Positions 394 to 20,829 of a stretch of 57,747 nt of DNA are shown piece after piece (position 1 is the stretch's first letter; each line of letters begins with the position of its first letter). The translations under genes were made by a program, and so were the position numbers. The notes below the pieces were generated by a model. It searched no databases, was not told the DNA's origin, and saw only the letters and a program-made list of their open reading frames with translations. This stretch comes from a virus (Duplodnaviria; Heunggongvirae; Uroviricota; Caudoviricetes): IMG/VR virus record IMGVR_UViG_2917393062_000003, positions 1 to 57,747 of that record; one strand, written 5' to 3'.

Positions 394-951
394 CTAAAGC
401 GACATTAACCTTTCCAACAGTTGCTCCTTACGGGCAACTATCCAGCCTTGCTGTTCCAGATAAAACTTAAAACGCTCCAGGGTACACACCATTGCGTCGG
501 CTGGGACTTTTTCCGTGAACTCAACCTGACCGTGGCTATTGAAATGGATCAGCAATGCGCATCCATCATTTTCGATGGGGGAGTTTTGCGCTGCTGGTGG
601 TTGTTTCTGACTGAAATAACAATCTTCCAGTTTTTCGAACACTTCCCACGCCTGATCGGTTTCGAGCATTTTGGCATGGCGGGCAGCGCCTCGTTCCGTC
701 CAGAGGATGAGGGAGCGGGTTTTGGGGGAAATTTGCAGGTAACTAAAAGTTACTCGCAAATTTTTCAGATCATCGCCAACGACTTTGAAATAATGCTTCC
801 CTTCCAGAAAACGAGTTTGATTACGTGAATGATTCATTTTTATGTTGGCAACATCCGTTCCATAAAGATGCGCCAATAGCTCGGTGGTTATGACAGGGAT
901 CTGGTTGTGGGTAATCGGGGAAAGAGTTTCAACTGCGATTTTGGTGGCCAT
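394..951 (-). CDS. ORF6N/KilA-C-like antirepressor-type protein (paralog of 13676-14221)
   Basis: 185 aa; motif LILWTERGAARHAKMLETDQAWEVFEKLED shared with the second copy at 13676-14221. Confidence 0.6.
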   Translation of the reverse strand: MATKIAVETLSPITHNQIPVITTELLAHLYGTDVANIKMNHSRNQTRFLEGKHYFKVVGDDLKNLRVTFSYLQISPKTRSLILWTERGAARHAKMLETDQAWEVFEKLEDCYFSQKQPPAAQNSPIENDGCALLIHFNSHGQVEFTEKVPADAMVCTLERFKFYLEQQGWIVARKEQLLERLMSL

Positions 952-1104
952 AAGATGATCCTTTTTCTTTGTGAATCATCACCACCTGCGACGCCAATCG
1001 CTTGGTGGTGAACTGTGCAGGGTTGGCGTAACCGGGAAAAAGGAACCGGCGCGGATTGCTCCGCCCCCACACAGCCCACCATTGAGATGTGACTGTGCAA
1101 ACGA

Positions 1105-1130
1105 CAATAAAAAAGACGCTGGCGCGTCTG
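1105..1130 (-). terminator. putative intrinsic terminator downstream of int
   Basis: minus-strand hairpin agacgc-gcca-gcgtct followed by T-run. Confidence 0.4.
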
Positions 1131-1215
1131 TTGTCGCCTTTTTCATCCGGGACGCCAATCCCGATACCAGATTTTGCTGGCATGTGCAGACTATAATCCC
1201 GGATGGTTATTTTTG

Positions 1216-5194: not shown

Positions 5195-5395
5195 TTACGG
5201 CGCTGTTTTAAGTCCTGCCGGGATTTCGTTATTATCCAGGGGAATAACTTTATCGACCGGATAGCAGTTGCCGGGAATTTTCTGTTCTGCTGCGGCAGCC
5301 GTGCATTCTTTCATTGAACCATATATACCAGTAACCACATCAACCGGTTCGCCCGTATTAAGAAAAACAGTCAGGACGAGTGCAAATACTGTATT
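5195..5395 (-). CDS. small secreted/exported protein (signal peptide-like N-terminus)
   Basis: start MNTVFALVLTVFL with SD AAGGA 8 nt upstream; ATGA overlap with upstream ORF. Confidence 0.45.
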   Translation of the reverse strand, partial: NTVFALVLTVFLNTGEPVDVVTGIYGSMKECTAAAAEQKIPGNCYPVDKVIPLDNNEIPAGLKTAP

Positions 5396-5583
5396 CATTG
5401 CCAGCATCCTTTTTGTATCGGACGTAAACGTGCCAGCATTGAAAGAATGCAAATTTTATTTAATAACTCCCGTTCGTGTTTTCTCTTATTAATGGCATCT
5501 TCAGTAAATACAGGGTTACTGATTCTGACTCCAATTTCAAAACAACCTTCAGACGTATTAACGTTTGGTAATAACGTTTCCAT
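5395..5583 (-). CDS. hypothetical early-left protein
   Basis: 62 aa ORF, SD GAGGA before ATG, translationally coupled to downstream ORF. Confidence 0.4.
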   Translation of the reverse strand: METLLPNVNTSEGCFEIGVRISNPVFTEDAINKRKHERELLNKICILSMLARLRPIQKGCWQ

Positions 5584-6139
5584 TATCGCGTCCTCAACAA
5601 TGAATTTTGTGATGCGGTGCCTGGTGCCTCCAGGTGACGTTAACCAGTTAACAATTAACGCCGGAGTATTTCACGTTACGCCAGTAAAGGACCGCTTTAC
5701 TGTTTTAACTGTTCCGCGTGCGCTGAGCCGCATTCACCGCGCCACAAAATTCACTTTAAAAAGGGCGGACATCAGCCAGCAATGAAACTGATGCCGCCAA
5801 AAGGTAATCAACATGGGTTGTTGCAGCGGGGTTGTCACTCAGGCGTATGGTCAACCTGACAACCCGGCGTCCTCAACGGGGAAGGAATAACCCCGCCATA
5901 CATACCGCCGCGCCATTTCGCGGAGTGCCACAACCGGAAGCGCACAGACGAAGATGTCAGTGGTACACAACAAAGGGAGGAATGACTTCGCTGTGCGCTT
6001 TCGCGTTATGCCCTGACTTTTCAGGGATATATCCTTTCAGTAAACTGTCAGTGCCGGATGCTCACCCGTGTCCGGCGCACGCACTCCACCTGACCCGTGG
6101 AGAACTCCTTAATTACCAACCCTCAGGAGGGTGAAATTT

Positions 6140-6331
6140 ATGACACAAGAAGAAAAAGTAATGTTTCTTATGCGCCTGGCTGTGGAAACCTTTAACGCCC
6201 ATTGCCAGGTGTCCATTTCACCATCTCACGCCATTTCTCTTGCTACCGAGCAAATGGGGGAGATTGACGTCATTTACGATAAATTTGAAGCATTCCTGGA
6301 TAAGAAGCTTATGGCAGAGAAGCGTCAATAA
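6140..6331 (+). CDS. hypothetical small protein
   Basis: ATG at 6140 with strong SD AGGAGG 9 nt upstream; convergent with and overlapping 6309-6914. Confidence 0.45.
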   Translation: MTQEEKVMFLMRLAVETFNAHCQVSISPSHAISLATEQMGEIDVIYDKFEAFLDKKLMAEKRQ

Positions 6332-6914
6332 TTCTCATTACCCATCGTAAATATACCGGAGTGGGCTTGATGTTGTGTATTTCAAGCTCGCTCTTCATTA
6401 CTTCCAGCAGGTTTGAACTGATAATAAATAAATCAGATTCATCGTTATTATTTTTATCTGCATCCTCTTTTTTTGTTTTCAGCTCTTGCGGTGAATGTTC
6501 GAAAGAAACTTGCAGGGTATTATTTTTAGCATCCACAGAGCCTAAAGTATGTGCGTATGGATGTGCTATTGTGCGCCCTCGCAGATTTGCGTCATTTTCT
6601 AAATTCACTGAACAAAACAGGGCATCAACAAGGCTCTGTACAATGCAAAGGCAATCGAGGGCCGTCGCTGTTTCTGTTTTGATTGATGAAAGAACATGGC
6701 CATTCAGGCAAACAGAAATCACCCGTTCATTAACATCGCTTTCCCGCTTTTGATTATCAGAACCATATAGCCCGGTAAACGCATCGCGCACATTACGAAC
6801 CATATTATCGATGGTTTCTTTTTTTGCGGATTCCGGTTTAATTTCCACCAGGCTATCGCTAAGTGTCGTTGCAGCAATTGTCTGGATTTCTTTTGGTAAA
6901 TCTTTAAATTCCAT
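6309..6914 (-). CDS. hypothetical protein, AT-rich moron-like gene
   Basis: 201 aa; SD GAGG; 3' part encoded by markedly AT-rich DNA unlike neighbours. Confidence 0.5.
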   Translation of the reverse strand: MEFKDLPKEIQTIAATTLSDSLVEIKPESAKKETIDNMVRNVRDAFTGLYGSDNQKRESDVNERVISVCLNGHVLSSIKTETATALDCLCIVQSLVDALFCSVNLENDANLRGRTIAHPYAHTLGSVDAKNNTLQVSFEHSPQELKTKKEDADKNNNDESDLFIISSNLLEVMKSELEIHNIKPTPVYLRWVMRIIDASLP

Positions 6915-6936: not shown

Positions 6937-7155
6937 TTAACGTGGGTATGTAATCATTCTGGCAATGCTTAATGCCGCTGCTTTTTCCAGCCTGGTGATA
7001 TCCTGCTCCAGAGCGGACAGATTTTCAGCTTGCTTAGCCCTGGCTTCATTGGCCCACTTCAGGTCCTGCGCTGCCGTAATTTTCTGGCGCATCCACTCAT
7101 AAAGTTCATCATCGGTATAGTCTGGCGCGATGATGACGGGTTCTCGTTTCTGCAT
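6937..7155 (-). CDS. hypothetical small coiled-coil protein
   Basis: 72 aa; SD GAGGAA 6 nt upstream. Confidence 0.45.
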   Translation of the reverse strand: MQKREPVIIAPDYTDDELYEWMRQKITAAQDLKWANEARAKQAENLSALEQDITRLEKAAALSIARMITYPR

Positions 7156-7184
7156 ACTGATTCCTCGCGGTGCTGTTTCGCTTA

Positions 7185-7313
7185 TCAGCCGTTAGATTTT
7201 GCCGAACTGGAAAGCGCCTGTTTAAACTCACTGAAGCTGAGAGCTTCTTCGCCTTCGGCAAGGCCTTCGAAGTATTCTTCGTAAGCCTTTTCCATGATTG
7301 CGTCGAAATCCAT
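7185..7313 (-). CDS. hypothetical small acidic protein (42 aa)
   Basis: manual translation MDFDAIMEKAYEEYFEGLAEGEEALSFSEFKQALSSSAKSNG; SD AGGTGA; not in ORF track because under 60 aa. Confidence 0.3.
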   Translation of the reverse strand: MDFDAIMEKAYEEYFEGLAEGEEALSFSEFKQALSSSAKSNG

Positions 7314-7314
7314 A

Positions 7315-7470
7315 TCACTCACCTGAATTTCTTTCCAGCCAGCGACGTGCGCCAGTTTCGGTTTTAAACGTTTTGCTTTTGGTATACGTCATCGCGGTGA
7401 ATGTGCCGTCCTGGTTGGGAAACACGCCGTATACCAGAGATTCGTTGTTACCAAGATCGATAGTATCCAT
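7315..7470 (-). CDS. hypothetical small protein (first gene of leftward early operon)
   Basis: start MDTIDLG with SD GAGG; the longer track ORF start at 7563 lies inside the predicted promoter. Confidence 0.4.
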   Translation of the reverse strand: MDTIDLGNNESLVYGVFPNQDGTFTAMTYTKSKTFKTETGARRWLERNSGE

Positions 7471-7547
7471 GTTGACCTCATTTCCCCTTAACGCCAGGGT
7501 GGCGGAACTGTTTGCTGAGAACACCGTGCGGTGTCTTGATGGAAGAT

Positions 7548-7599
7548 AATTTAGTTTTCTCATGGTAATAGGTCAAGTGTTTTTGATGAGAAAACTCAA
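7548..7599 (-). promoter_or_regulatory. leftward early promoter (PL-like) with operator palindromes
   Basis: minus-strand -35 TTGACC (7571-7576), 17-nt spacer, -10 TAAATT (7548-7553); operator ATGAGAAAACTCAA at 7586-7599 and a related copy at 7550-7563. Confidence 0.45.
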
Positions 7600-7663
7600 T
7601 GTTTAATGCAAAACAAAGCCAATACATTGAAATGTAAGGCTTTAAAATTTGTGAAGGAGTGGG

Positions 7664-8071
7664 TTATTGATGTTTGTTACGTTTGCGAGCTTCTAGTAGC
7701 TCGGTAAATAGGCGATTAAAATTCTCAACACGGGCACGGAGTTCGCTGATTTGTGCTTGCTGCTCTGATTTTGGAAGTGCGCGATACAATCGCAACATCT
7801 CCAACTCATCTTCCGATAAGTCTAAGGAGCTGTTGAGTGCAACTGGGGGCTCTGGTGTTTTATCCTCGTCACCAAACAGTATCCAGGTTGGTGAACATTG
7901 CAATACCTCAGCCAGGCGATGCAAATTTTGCCCGCGCGGGGCTGTATGGTCGCTTTCCCATAGTGAAATTGATGAGCCAGATACGCCAGCAGCCTTGCTT
8001 AAATCGTTTTGACTTAAACCAACCTGTTTGCGTCTTTCTCTAATTCGTTGACCTAAAGTTTTCTCGTTCAT
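7664..8071 (-). CDS. DicA/RacR-like HTH_XRE prophage repressor
   Basis: 135 aa; N-terminal HTH; LQCSPTWILFGDEDK motif recalled from DicA. Confidence 0.75.
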   Translation of the reverse strand: MNEKTLGQRIRERRKQVGLSQNDLSKAAGVSGSSISLWESDHTAPRGQNLHRLAEVLQCSPTWILFGDEDKTPEPPVALNSSLDLSEDELEMLRLYRALPKSEQQAQISELRARVENFNRLFTELLEARKRNKHQ

Positions 8072-8092
8072 ATTTAGATATCTTAATAACCC

Positions 8093-8136
8093 TTGACTTG
8101 AGATTCCTTGAGTGATTACTATTGAGAAAACTCAAC
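8093..8136 (+). promoter_or_regulatory. rightward early promoter (PR-like) with operator palindrome
   Basis: -35 TTGACT (8093-8098), 17-nt spacer, -10 TTACTA; 14-bp palindrome TTGAGAAAACTCAA at 8123-8136. Confidence 0.5.
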
Positions 8137-8148
8137 TTTGGAGGGGCG

Positions 8149-8376
8149 ATGTTTAAATCGGACGTAATTAATTTTTATGGGACGAAAGCCAAAGTAGCGA
8201 AAGCTGCTGGTGTTGATCCATCTGCTGTTTCTCAATGGGGGGAACTGGTTCCTGAAGGCCGCGCGATGCGCCTGCAAGAGGCATCCGGCGGGGAACTTCA
8301 GTACGACCCCAAAGTTTATGACGAATATCGTAAGGCAAAGCGGGCGGGGCGGTTGAACAATGAAAATCACCCCTGA
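8149..8376 (+). CDS. DicC/YdaS-like Cro-type regulator
   Basis: divergent from repressor; ATG at 8149 with SD GGAGGGG; motif GRAMRLQEASGGELQYDP. Confidence 0.6.
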   Translation: MFKSDVINFYGTKAKVAKAAGVDPSAVSQWGELVPEGRAMRLQEASGGELQYDPKVYDEYRKAKRAGRLNNENHP

Positions 8377-8911
8377 ACAGGTTTGTGAAGCTCTGGATGC
8401 CTGGGTATGCCGACCAGGAATGACACAGGAGCAGGCGACGATATTAATCACAGAAGCCTTCTGGGCACTGAAAGAACGCCCGAACATCGATGTTCAACGT
8501 GTCACGTTTGATGATGGCGCGGTTGATCAACGGGCGCTTGGTGTTAACCGGGTGAAGATATTCGAACGCTGGAAAGCTATCGACACCAGGGATAAGCGTG
8601 AAAAATTCACGGCGCTGATTCCGGCAATTATGGAGGCTATCCGGATAAGTGATTTCTGGTTGTATCGTGAAATTACTGACGGAAAAAGCATTACGTACAT
8701 GATCGCCGGGTTAAACAAAGAATATGGCGATGTGGTTGAGTCCGGTCTGCTTTTGGCAGATCCCGCTGTTGTGGAACGTGAGACTGACGAGCTTATAGAA
8801 AAAGCTATTGCTTTCAAGCATGCGTATCGTCAGCAATACCAACATTACTTTGCAGATAAACAAATGTCTGCCTGGGGTTCGTATGAGTATCGATGCACTA
8901 CGATGGGCTAA
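8360..8911 (+). CDS. hypothetical protein at the YdaT position of Rac-like early regions
   Basis: 183 aa; call is by gene order only (repressor, Cro-like, this ORF, O-like). Confidence 0.4.
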   Translation: MKITPEQVCEALDAWVCRPGMTQEQATILITEAFWALKERPNIDVQRVTFDDGAVDQRALGVNRVKIFERWKAIDTRDKREKFTALIPAIMEAIRISDFWLYREITDGKSITYMIAGLNKEYGDVVESGLLLADPAVVERETDELIEKAIAFKHAYRQQYQHYFADKQMSAWGSYEYRCTTMG

Positions 8912-13401: not shown

Positions 13402-13488
13402 CGTAATTACTAGTCCGGGGCTATATTTTCGACGCGCCAGCAAAATCTGGCGTCGGGATTGAGACCCCGGATGTTTACGGAGCGATAT

Positions 13489-13512
13489 GAGACGCGCCCG
13501 CGTCTTTTTTTT
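13489..13512 (+). terminator. rho-independent terminator ending the rightward early operon
   Basis: gagacgc-gccc-gcgtc followed by 8 T. Confidence 0.6.
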
Positions 13513-13675
13513 CATATCGTTTGCACAGTCATATTCGCGATTTATGGCGGGCTGTGTGGGGGAGCCGAAAGGCTCGCCGGTTTCCGTACCCGGTAGTCTC
13601 AACCCTGCACAGGTCGCCACCAGATGATTGAGACCAGAAGGTGGCGATAATGTCCAAATGTACGGAGTTATCGTT

Positions 13676-14221
13676 ATGACCACTCAAATTTCTGTCGAAA
13701 CTCTTTCCCCGATTACACACAACCAAATTCCCGTTATCACCACCGAGTTGCTGGCACAACTTTACGGCACGGATTCAGATAACATCAAAAAGAATTATTC
13801 GCGTAACGCAGATCGCTTTTGTGAAGGTAAGCACTTTTACAAAGTGATTGGTGATGAACTAAAGAATTTGCGGGTGACTTTAAGTCACTCACAAAATCCC
13901 ATCTCCCCAAAAACCCGCTCGCTCATACTCTGGACAGAACGCGGAGCAGCCCGCCACGCCAAAATGCTCGAAACCGATCAGGCGTGGGAAGTATTCGAAA
14001 AACTCGAAGACAGTTACTTCAACCAGTACGAGAAAGAGCGGGCTATGGGCAAAATGAATATCGATTTTCACCTGGCGATCCGTGACGATAAAACTGCTTT
14101 CATCCGAAGTTATGCGCCAGGTCAGCTGGTGACGGTTGAAGAAGCACTGACCTTGCTTAAATCGCGCGGTTGGCTGGTAATGCCGCGCGATGAACTGGCC
14201 GGAAAATTAATGGAGCTTTAA
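13676..14221 (+). CDS. ORF6N/KilA-C-like antirepressor-type protein
   Basis: start MTTQISVETLSPITHNQIPVITTELLA; about 90 percent nt identity to parts of 394-951 by eye. Confidence 0.6.
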   Translation: MTTQISVETLSPITHNQIPVITTELLAQLYGTDSDNIKKNYSRNADRFCEGKHFYKVIGDELKNLRVTLSHSQNPISPKTRSLILWTERGAARHAKMLETDQAWEVFEKLEDSYFNQYEKERAMGKMNIDFHLAIRDDKTAFIRSYAPGQLVTVEEALTLLKSRGWLVMPRDELAGKLMEL

Positions 14222-14932: not shown

Positions 14933-15193
14933 ATGAAAATCGAAGAATTGCGTGAAATTTTTAGTGAAAATGGCCTCTATGCTGTGCGCGTTGAGAATGG
15001 ATCTATTGTCAGTTACTGCCGCATTAAATGTTTACAGTCTCAACAAAGGAAGAGTGGAGCTGTGTTAATTCATTTTGTGGACGGACTTATGACGGACGGT
15101 TTTATTTTGCGTGAAGATGAATTTGTCACATCATTACGGGGGCTGAAAGAGGCCGGGCTTAAAGCTGGCTTTTCTGCTTTTGAGGATGTGTGA
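14933..15193 (+). CDS. hypothetical protein
   Basis: 86 aa ORF with weak SD. Confidence 0.45.
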   Translation: MKIEELREIFSENGLYAVRVENGSIVSYCRIKCLQSQQRKSGAVLIHFVDGLMTDGFILREDEFVTSLRGLKEAGLKAGFSAFEDV

Positions 15194-20358: not shown

Positions 20359-20529
20359 TCGCCTGTAATAGCAGAATATTTTGCTGAAAAATGAAGGGTG
20401 CGCCAGCGTCCGGAAAGCATGAAATTCTGTGTTTGTGGCTATTCAATAAAATAAATTCTTTCTGTCGCCGCGAATACTCAAATGTTGATCAGTGCCCGGT
20501 GCGGCGACGGGCTTCGATATCAGGAGACG

Positions 20530-20829
20530 ATGATGGAAAAAACAGAAAACAAACCGATTGTAATTGGTGCTGATGCTGCTCCGTTTAAGTTTGAGTTGTC
20601 TCAACTGGTGGAGATGCGCATCAGTGATGAATGGGGTGAGGTTAAAGCTCGCGCTCAGTATGCGGATGGCGAAAACCAGTACTTACTCCACTACAAAGCT
20701 GCTGATGGTCGCGCCACGACGGAGTGGTTTGGTGAGTCAATGCTGGAAGCAACAGAAGATGATCGCCATCCAGGTTGTCCGGTATTTGCCTGCATGAAAT
20801 TACCGGAAGGCGCAGTCGTTACTGAGTAA
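20530..20829 (+). CDS. hypothetical protein
   Basis: ATG 20530 with SD AGGAG. Confidence 0.45.
   Translation: MMEKTENKPIVIGADAAPFKFELSQLVEMRISDEWGEVKARAQYADGENQYLLHYKAADGRATTEWFGESMLEATEDDRHPGCPVFACMKLPEGAVVTE

Follow-up and report, generated by a model that had tools for sequence, protein, structure and literature searches.

A DicA-like repressor gene flanked by probable operators of a P22/Qin-type prophage immunity switch

The repeated palindromic sites found on either side of a DicA-like repressor gene in a caudoviral genome are very probably, judging from their sequence and placement, the operators of a prophage immunity switch of the type known from phage P22 and from the Qin prophage, with the recognition form TTGAG-N4-CTCAA. 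The gene lies in the IMG/VR virus record IMGVR_UViG_2917393062_000003 (Duplodnaviria; Heunggongvirae; Uroviricota; Caudoviricetes), of which the full 57,747 nucleotides (nt), here called the window, were analysed. The element contains integrase, excisionase, exonuclease, replication and terminase genes. Three of the sites are strong, and it can be proposed with good confidence that they are the operators used by the repressor, and probably by the divergent Cro-like protein too, for the control of two early promoters. The layout is already known from Qin and P22, and what is particular here is the TTGAG-N4-CTCAA specificity. A literature text search for the operator sequence returned unrelated eukaryotic matches only, with no description of this specificity, and the literature search found no title or abstract dealing with the operators of the related phage mEp460.

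Results

Direct reading of positions 7000-8800 and a pattern search agree on two exact copies of the 13-mer TGAGAAAACTCAA, at 7587-7599(+) and 8123-8135(+), and on a third in inverted orientation that differs at one base, TGAGAAAACTAAA, at 7550-7562(-). A repeat finder independently gives the direct pair (D5) together with inverted pairs (I2 and I4). The direct copies are separated by 536 bp, and the last of the three sites lies over the rightward promoter, while the left inverted pair (I2, 7549-7563/7586-7600) has 15-nt arms that are 93% complementary, with 22 nt between them. The original prediction that palindromic copies flank a DicA-like repressor gene is borne out by these positions and by the encoded protein, an HTH_3-domain protein with 55% full-length identity to K-12 DicA. 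The right-hand copy, which had been placed at 8123-8136, is present, but the 14-mer really spans 8122-8135, one base away. The related copy at 7550-7563 is likewise present, and is inverted relative to the other two. The description of the sites as 14-bp palindromic half-site pairs is true at 8122-8135, which is the sole 5+4+5 palindrome (TTGAG-AAAA-CTCAA), but not of the two left-hand copies, whose arms are imperfect: the left arm of 7586-7599 is ATGAG, and 7550-7563 reads ATGAG-AAAA-CTAAA on the minus strand. Two further candidate operators that were missing from the original prediction, at 8098-8111 and 8073-8086, were recognised between the right-hand site and the repressor gene (Table 1). 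The sites are named here after the right (OR) and left (OL) operators of the known systems.

A sigma-70 consensus scan of positions 7300-8400 returned only two promoter-like sequences, each with copies of the repeat lying over it or directly beside it. The site at 8122-8135 begins at the final base of the rightward -10 and spans the expected transcription start (+1). On the leftward promoter, where two copies had been predicted to sit, 7550-7563 does overlap the -10, but 7586-7599 lies off the hexamers and begins 10 bp upstream of the -35 (7571-7576). Both predicted promoters agree in place and in hexamers with Qin dicCp and with the annotated PR and PL of P22. A hexamer TAAGAT would be the PRM-like -10 of the repressor gene. 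Given that it stands 8 nt before the repressor ATG, and that by sequence reading this ATG has no Shine-Dalgarno sequence, the repressor mRNA may be nearly leaderless. The OR3-like candidate overlaps the same hexamer, and for this reason the repressor promoter could be shut off by the Cro-like protein or by excess repressor.

The repetition of the sites across the two intergenic regions is not reproduced by chance. In none of 3000 shuffles of these regions did a 13-mer from the right one recur twice in the left one with one mismatch or fewer, whereas two such copies are observed. The only other match to TGAGAAAACTCAA with at most one mismatch in the window is at 20591-20603, within an open reading frame (ORF). 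When only the arms are considered, TTGAG-N4-CTCAA with at most two mismatches is found 26 times in the whole window against 27 expected, which is the chance level; five of these 26 loose matches cluster in 7550-8135, and such a cluster of five within any 600-bp span appeared in 3 of 300 Markov simulations. The arms are perfect in TTGAGTTGTCTCAA at 20591-20604, but this match falls within ORF 20482-20829, and mEp460 has no such site (at most one mismatch) outside its immunity region. It was considered as a distant operator, but on both counts it is probably a chance occurrence.

A comparison across immunity types was made with related loci gathered from annotated collections, from a scan of viral contigs for the conserved ydfA leader, and from tblastn searches against phage records. 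The initial related-locus scan returned only near-identical repressors (97-99%), and the diversity came from the ydfA-leader scan and tblastn. Six or seven repressor types are found on one scaffold, and in each of them a type-specific 14-bp palindrome occupies the same three positions. The half-sites are TTGAG-N4-CTCAA for this window, mEp460 and HannyBb; TTAGT-N4-ACTAA for Qin; TTAGG-N4-TCTAA for PPompW; TTAGA-N4-TCTAA for L149, Rac 442/2 and BUCT709; and CTAAC-N4-GTTAG for phiES15. Several types have the recognition helix AHVTISQWE in common and their half-sites are common to them too, while the type of the window stands furthest apart in both its helix (SGSSISLWES) and its half-site. When the sites were cross-compared, the best matches to the right-hand site of each type were at positions 16-17 and 52-54 of the left intergenic region belonging to that type. 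Those of the window type score 13/14 and 12/14, and no score above 10 is reached in the left regions of the other types. Qin is an exception, in that only the site at position 17 was recovered and a weaker second site was read by eye. Equivalents of the OR3-like site adjoin the repressor ATG in the types labelled B to E, with only a weaker candidate in phiES15. The module boundaries shared among types are the conserved flanks and not the sites. Neither the cross-type site comparison nor the arm-match scan turned up a third operator in the left intergenic region, and the place where it would be expected is occupied by a hairpin at 7614-7644.

The proteins encoded on the scaffold follow the sites to different extents. 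The helix-turn-helix region of the Cro-like protein varies with the immunity type, in step with that of the repressor. The 110 N-terminal residues of the YdaT-like protein are nearly unchanged in four immunity types, and for this reason this protein does not distinguish the sites.

Within the immunity type of the window (type A), conservation was evaluated in 46 distinct left intergenic and 21 distinct right intergenic sequences. On the left, the OL1-like and OL2-like sites have a mean column conservation of 0.997 and 0.989, and the -10 and -35 hexamers one of 1.0 and 0.957, against only 0.72 and 0.84 for the spacers between OL1, -35 and OL2; the OL1-like site is identical in 44 of the 46 sequences. 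On the right, the OR1-like site has a mean column conservation of 0.997 and is identical in 20 of the 21 sequences, and the OR3-like site is invariant; the three candidate sites together range from 0.993 to 1.0, compared with approximately 0.91 both for the -10 and for the bases leading up to the cro-like ATG. The 1.1-kb region is at least 80% covered in 797 of 5426 complete E. coli genomes (~15%), the best matches being approximately 97% identical, and it is 90-91% identical to phages mEp460_ev081 and HannyBb. These two phages and the E. coli prophages have the same immunity type, with the three 13-nt cores identical to those of the window, whereas the spacers of the left region (OL1, -35, OL2) differ considerably. 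In mEp460 and HannyBb the arms of the right-hand site extend to 6 bp (ATTGAG/CTCAAT).

The Qin dicA-dicC-dicB immunity locus of E. coli K-12, reportedly described by Bejar et al. in 1986 and 1988, has the same gene order as the window: a leftward set from ydfA to dicF and dicB, the repressor gene, a divergent cro-like gene and then a ydaT-like gene. Qin DicA also has 135 amino acids (aa), and Qin has a palindrome over the rightward -10 (Oc) and two sites at the leftward promoter, an arrangement that the window matches by sequence and position. Qin Oc (TTGTTAGTTATGACTAACAA) is the positional homologue of 8122-8135, and the -35 hexamer of Qin dicCp is the same TTGACT as in the PR-like promoter. 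The window thereby contains the elements of a Qin-type module: a short HTH_3 repressor, a divergent gene of the P22_Cro family, a ydfA-dicF-dicB operon and a palindrome at the Oc position. The two loci differ in the recognition helix (SHVSVSQWER in Qin, SGSSISLWES in the window) and in the half-site (TTAGT in Qin against TTGAG in the window), and because both differ a separate immunity specificity is expected. Furthermore, the hairpin that follows the repressor gene in the window is conserved, and the corresponding Qin sequence is different. Qin is a cryptic prophage, whereas the type of the window is found in the functional phages mEp460_ev081 and HannyBb.

Experiments on Qin (Yun et al. 2012, PMC3441716; a 2023 study in J Bacteriol, PMC10448788) have addressed the homologous sites. 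Qin Oc overlaps the dicC -10, the start of dicCp having been mapped by rapid amplification of cDNA 5' ends (5'RACE), and it gives a reporter DicA-dependent repression in vivo that is abolished by one A-to-C change; the test host contained no added DicC (PMC3441716). When Oc is present on a high-copy plasmid, single-base mutations within Oc are selected, and DicA activates its own promoter (PMC3441716). At the leftward promoter, deletion of dicA de-represses dicBp 22-fold while deletion of dicC has no effect, DicA and DicC act as a bistable switch, and the antirepressor Rem lifts the repression of dicBp (PMC10448788). The location of DicA binding at the dicB promoter has been described as unknown (PMC7567609).

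The sites of P22 were read from the sequence inside the annotated operator features of one P22 record, which is a virB-3 operator mutant, so that single bases may differ from wild type. The order in P22 is repressor ATG, OR3, PR -35 (TTGACT), OR2, PR -10 and OR1, and the operators and candidate sites of the window follow it. The centres of the OR-like sites are 25 bp (OR3-OR2) and 24 bp (OR2-OR1) apart in the window, and those of the three P22 operators between cro and c2 are 23 and 25 bp apart. The core geometry of 5+4+5 is also shared. P22 OR3 (ATTTAAGATGACTTAACT) abuts the c2 ATG and is resembled by the OR3-like site; the annotated P22 PR starts with TTGACT, overlapping the end of OR2; and the annotated P22 PRM ends with TAAGAT, identical to the hexamer of the window, the RM transcript starting 4 nt before the c2 ATG. 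At P22 PL the -35 is TTGACC, with OL1 downstream and OL2 upstream of it, 35 bp apart, compared with 36 bp here. P22 differs in having the half-site TTAAG within an 18-bp operator, where the window has TTGAG within 14 bp, and in having OL1-3, where two left-hand sites were found in the window.

The logic of lambda is the same, with a repressor gene between two early promoters, repeated operators, a divergent cro and a bistable switch. Lambda has 17-bp operators, three clear sites per side, a repressor with a C-terminal cleavage and oligomerisation domain, and RecA induction. Neither the repressor nor the Cro-like protein of the window has close sequence similarity to its lambda counterpart, and the Pfam search gave only a sub-threshold match to Phage_CI_repr. 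Phage 434 shares 14-bp operators (ACAA-N6-TTGT) with an A/T-rich central spacer and the same family of DNA-binding domain, with PDB matches to 434 Cro (E 7.6e-7) and 434 repressor (E 1.4e-4). The central bases of the 434 operator are not known to be contacted. Phage 434 differs in its half-sites and in the cleavable C-terminal domain of its repressor, and the homology to it is more distant than that to P22 C2.

Table 1. Sites, promoters, genes and RNAs of the immunity region and its surroundings (positions in the window)
Feature	Sequence	Position	Strand	Remark
OR1-like operator (putative)	TTGAGAAAACTCAA	8122-8135		over last base of rightward -10 and predicted +1
OR2-like candidate operator	TTGAGATTCCTTGA	8098-8111		8/10 arm positions; abuts rightward -35; 24 bp centre-to-centre from OR1-like
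OR3-like candidate operator	TTTAGATATCTTAA	8073-8086		8/10 arm positions; 1 base from repressor ATG; over PRM-like -10
OL1-like operator (putative), read on minus strand	ATGAGAAAACTAAA	7550-7563		over leftward -10
OL2-like operator (putative)	ATGAGAAAACTCAA	7586-7599		upstream of leftward -35; 36 bp centre-to-centre from OL1-like
PR-like promoter (predicted)	TTGACT-18-TACTAT	8093-8122	+	upstream of cro/dicC-like, ydaT-like and replication genes
PL-like promoter (predicted)	TTGACC-17-TAAATT	7548-7576	-	upstream of leftward operon, ydfA to dicF and dicB
PRM-like -10 hexamer (predicted)	TAAGAT	8080-8085	-	8 nt before repressor ATG
Repressor gene, 135 aa		7664-8071	-	N-terminal HTH_3
Cro/DicC-like gene, 75 aa		8149-8376	+	P22_Cro, E 1.1e-17; divergent from repressor
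ydaT-like gene, cII position		8360-8911	+	family search
ydfA-like gene (DUF1391)		7315-7470	-	first of leftward operon; Pfam
DicF-like small RNA (sRNA)		5763-5813	-	leftward operon; 34.1 bits against Rfam gathering score of 48; E 5.6e-5
dicB homologue (cell-division inhibitor)		5395-5583	-	leftward operon; 87% identical to K-12 DicB
Terminator-like hairpin and U-rich tail		7604-7644	-	directly after repressor stop codon; -12 kcal/mol, z -2.55
Rem-like gene, 86 aa, candidate antirepressor		14933-15193	+	70% identical to K-12 Rem

The HTH_3 domain of the repressor was identified with Pfam (E 1.7e-16). The first 72 residues match the N-terminal domain of P22 C2 in PDB (E 1.9e-15; entries including 2r1j and 3jxb), with 47% identity over 72 aa, and the 60 C-terminal residues align only with DicA-type proteins. 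Beyond HTH_3 the repressor has no Pfam match, to a peptidase domain (S24) or otherwise; repressors of the cleavable CI/LexA-like class have a C-terminal S24 peptidase and an Ala-Gly site, and the Pfam search gave no S24 match for the repressor of the window. Its short C-terminal region is in this respect unlike P22 C2, a protein of 216 aa that is cleaved by a RecA-dependent route (PMC10448788). A longer repressor ORF of 152 aa with an upstream start (MLITQGISSQGLLRYLNM...) is possible in HannyBb (L002 1862-2320), where it is annotated in this form, and in 26 IMG/VR loci (e.g., L151 and L205). This extension, which would cross the OR3-like and OR2-like sites, is closed in the window, and the start that gives 135 aa is probably the real one. 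The C-terminal half of the Cro-like protein is nearly identical to K-12 DicC.

The hairpin after the repressor gene is formed by AAAGCC...GGCUUU with an inner ACAUU/AAUGU stem. Across the 46 left variants it hardly changes, in contrast to its flanks, and it probably stops transcription of the repressor gene before the leftward promoter. Within the leftward operon, the DicF-like RNA stands where it is expected. A sub-threshold Rfam match to STnc100 (35.1 bits against 47) is found at 5551-5765(-), just upstream of the dicB homologue, and the segment 5953-7327, which contains a 201-aa ORF at 6309-6914(-), has no counterpart in mEp460.

Given that a Rem homologue is present and that the repressor matches no peptidase domain, induction probably occurs through an antirepressor. 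Two pairs of isrK sRNA and C4 antisense RNA were also observed, at 1001-1183(-) and 13434-13624(+), each followed by an Ant-like ORF of 185-197 aa, at 394-951(-) and 13628-14221(+), respectively. From the reading of their protein sequences, these ORFs are candidate antirepressors. The two copies form a 600-bp inverted repeat with 74.5% identity. The right copy lies 0.7 kb upstream of the Rem-like gene, and the left copy may belong to a neighbouring element, given that it lies beyond the integrase gene (1216-2334).

Discussion

An operator role for the repeats, as proposed in the original prediction, is supported by the comparison across types, by the conservation within the type and by the presence of Qin Oc, an operator for which binding by DicA has been demonstrated genetically, at the homologous position (PMC3441716). 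The OL/OR-like arrangement that it described is also supported, but its nearest parallels are P22 immC and Qin dicA-dicC-dicB, not lambda. In the mechanism that we infer, from binding, start sites and cooperativity to self-activation and the route of induction, dimers of the repressor would recognise the 14-bp TTGAG-N4-CTCAA sites. Repressor bound at 8122-8135 would cover the -10 and +1 and thereby silence the cro/dicC-like, ydaT-like and replication genes, and repressor at 7550-7563, over the -10, together with 7586-7599 would keep the leftward operon (ydfA to dicF and dicB) silent. The sites at 8098-8111 and 8073-8086 would be weaker and would complete a triplet resembling OR1, OR2 and OR3. 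As in the switches of lambda and P22, the Cro-like protein probably reads the same sites as the repressor. De-repression would come about through an antirepressor, the Rem homologue, and not through RecA-stimulated self-cleavage.

Several observations weigh against this assignment. In isolation, the Qin sites Om, which corresponds to the OR2-like site, and Oa failed to bind DicA (PMC3441716). For this reason the OR2-like and OR3-like sites, each agreeing with the arms at only 8 of 10 positions, are regarded as candidates, which perhaps do not work or need cooperativity. The perfect palindrome is found in one of the three strong sites, and both early promoters are consensus matches only. The distance of 35-36 bp between OL1 and OL2 places them on different faces of the helix, which is not predicted by simple side-by-side cooperativity. 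Conservation on the right does not single out the sites, given that the right intergenic region is almost wholly conserved. Finally, the repressor, the Cro-like protein and the sites change together, so that sequence comparison cannot tell which of the two proteins binds.

This last point is what would favour the sites being operators of the Cro/DicC-like protein only, with the DicA-like repressor acting elsewhere or indirectly, since the helix-turn-helix of the Cro-like protein changes with the sites exactly as that of the repressor does. Such an arrangement is nonetheless quite improbable, given that repression through Qin Oc in vivo needs DicA in a host without added DicC (PMC3441716), that dicBp responds 22-fold to the deletion of dicA and not at all to that of dicC (PMC10448788), and that the N-terminal domain of the repressor is homologous to that of P22 C2, whose operators have the same 5+4+5 core. 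Binding by the YdaT-like protein in the cII position is contradicted by the near identity of its N-terminal 110 residues in four types with differing sites. A coding role for the repeats was considered together with it, because ATG AGA AAA CTC AA opens ORFs that start with MRKLN, of which 7315-7563(-) and 8122-8376(+) run in frame into ydfA and the cro-like gene. However, the copy at 7586 reaches a stop after six codons, transcription is predicted to begin downstream of both MRKLN start codons, and the genes that follow each have a Shine-Dalgarno sequence and an ATG of their own, which leaves YdaT-like binding or coding with almost no probability.

The close complementarity of the left pair (15-nt arms, 93%, 22 nt apart) would also be compatible with a stem-loop, either an RNA hairpin or a DNA cruciform, in place of two protein sites. 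A stem-loop leaves unexplained the third, direct copy 536 bp away over the other promoter, and its 22-nt loop would hold the conserved -35 hexamer; moreover, by our own count the complementarity of the left sites in other types is 8-11/14, contributed by the arms alone, against 13/14 here. It is accordingly considered very unlikely. The MRKLN coding extensions, YdaT-like binding and the left-repeat hairpin were all rejected on this evidence. Equally hard to credit is that the repeats are functionless, being chance matches or leftovers of recombination between phage modules. The chance-level frequency of loose arm matches across the window and the perfect-arm match within the ORF at 20591-20604 speak for such an origin, but the repeat was reproduced in none of the 3000 shuffles, the sites are far better conserved than the adjacent spacers in the 46 variants, type-specific palindromes stand at the same positions in other immunity types, and the shared module boundaries are formed by the conserved flanks and not by the sites. 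The reading of the repeats as operators of the DicA-like repressor is therefore retained.

The second sites of two types deserve separate mention. In Qin, the right and left second sites have a variant half-site that differs from the first sites (TATGT...GTTAA and TATGC...GCTAA), and the same is seen in BUCT709 (...TCGAA and ...ACGAA). Given that variants common to left and right are found in two types only, this may be a coincidence. A more speculative proposal, which we put forward as a long shot, is that DicA-type modules make up a naturally occurring set of five or more repressor/operator pairs, mutually orthogonal and built on a fixed promoter scaffold, in which the second sites (OR2-like and OL2-like) are read differently from the first. 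The differential reading is proposed because Qin (TATG-) and BUCT709 (-CGAA) have their own variant half-sites and because OL2 lies 34-36 bp from OL1, on another face of the helix. If true, the difference could reflect preferential reading by the Cro-like protein, or a loop between OL and OR (~570 bp) held by the short helical C-terminal region of the repressor, and either would replace the side-by-side cooperative binding of lambda and P22.

The understanding of how such switches work is unchanged by these results. What they provide is an assignment of operators, promoters and a likely route of induction to an immunity type that is present in approximately 15% of complete E. coli genomes and in functional phages, together with comparative evidence on where DicA-type repressors bind at a dicB-type promoter. 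The immunity types amount to a small table of recognition helices and half-sites, which could be of use in planning cross-immunity tests or in designing orthogonal repressors.

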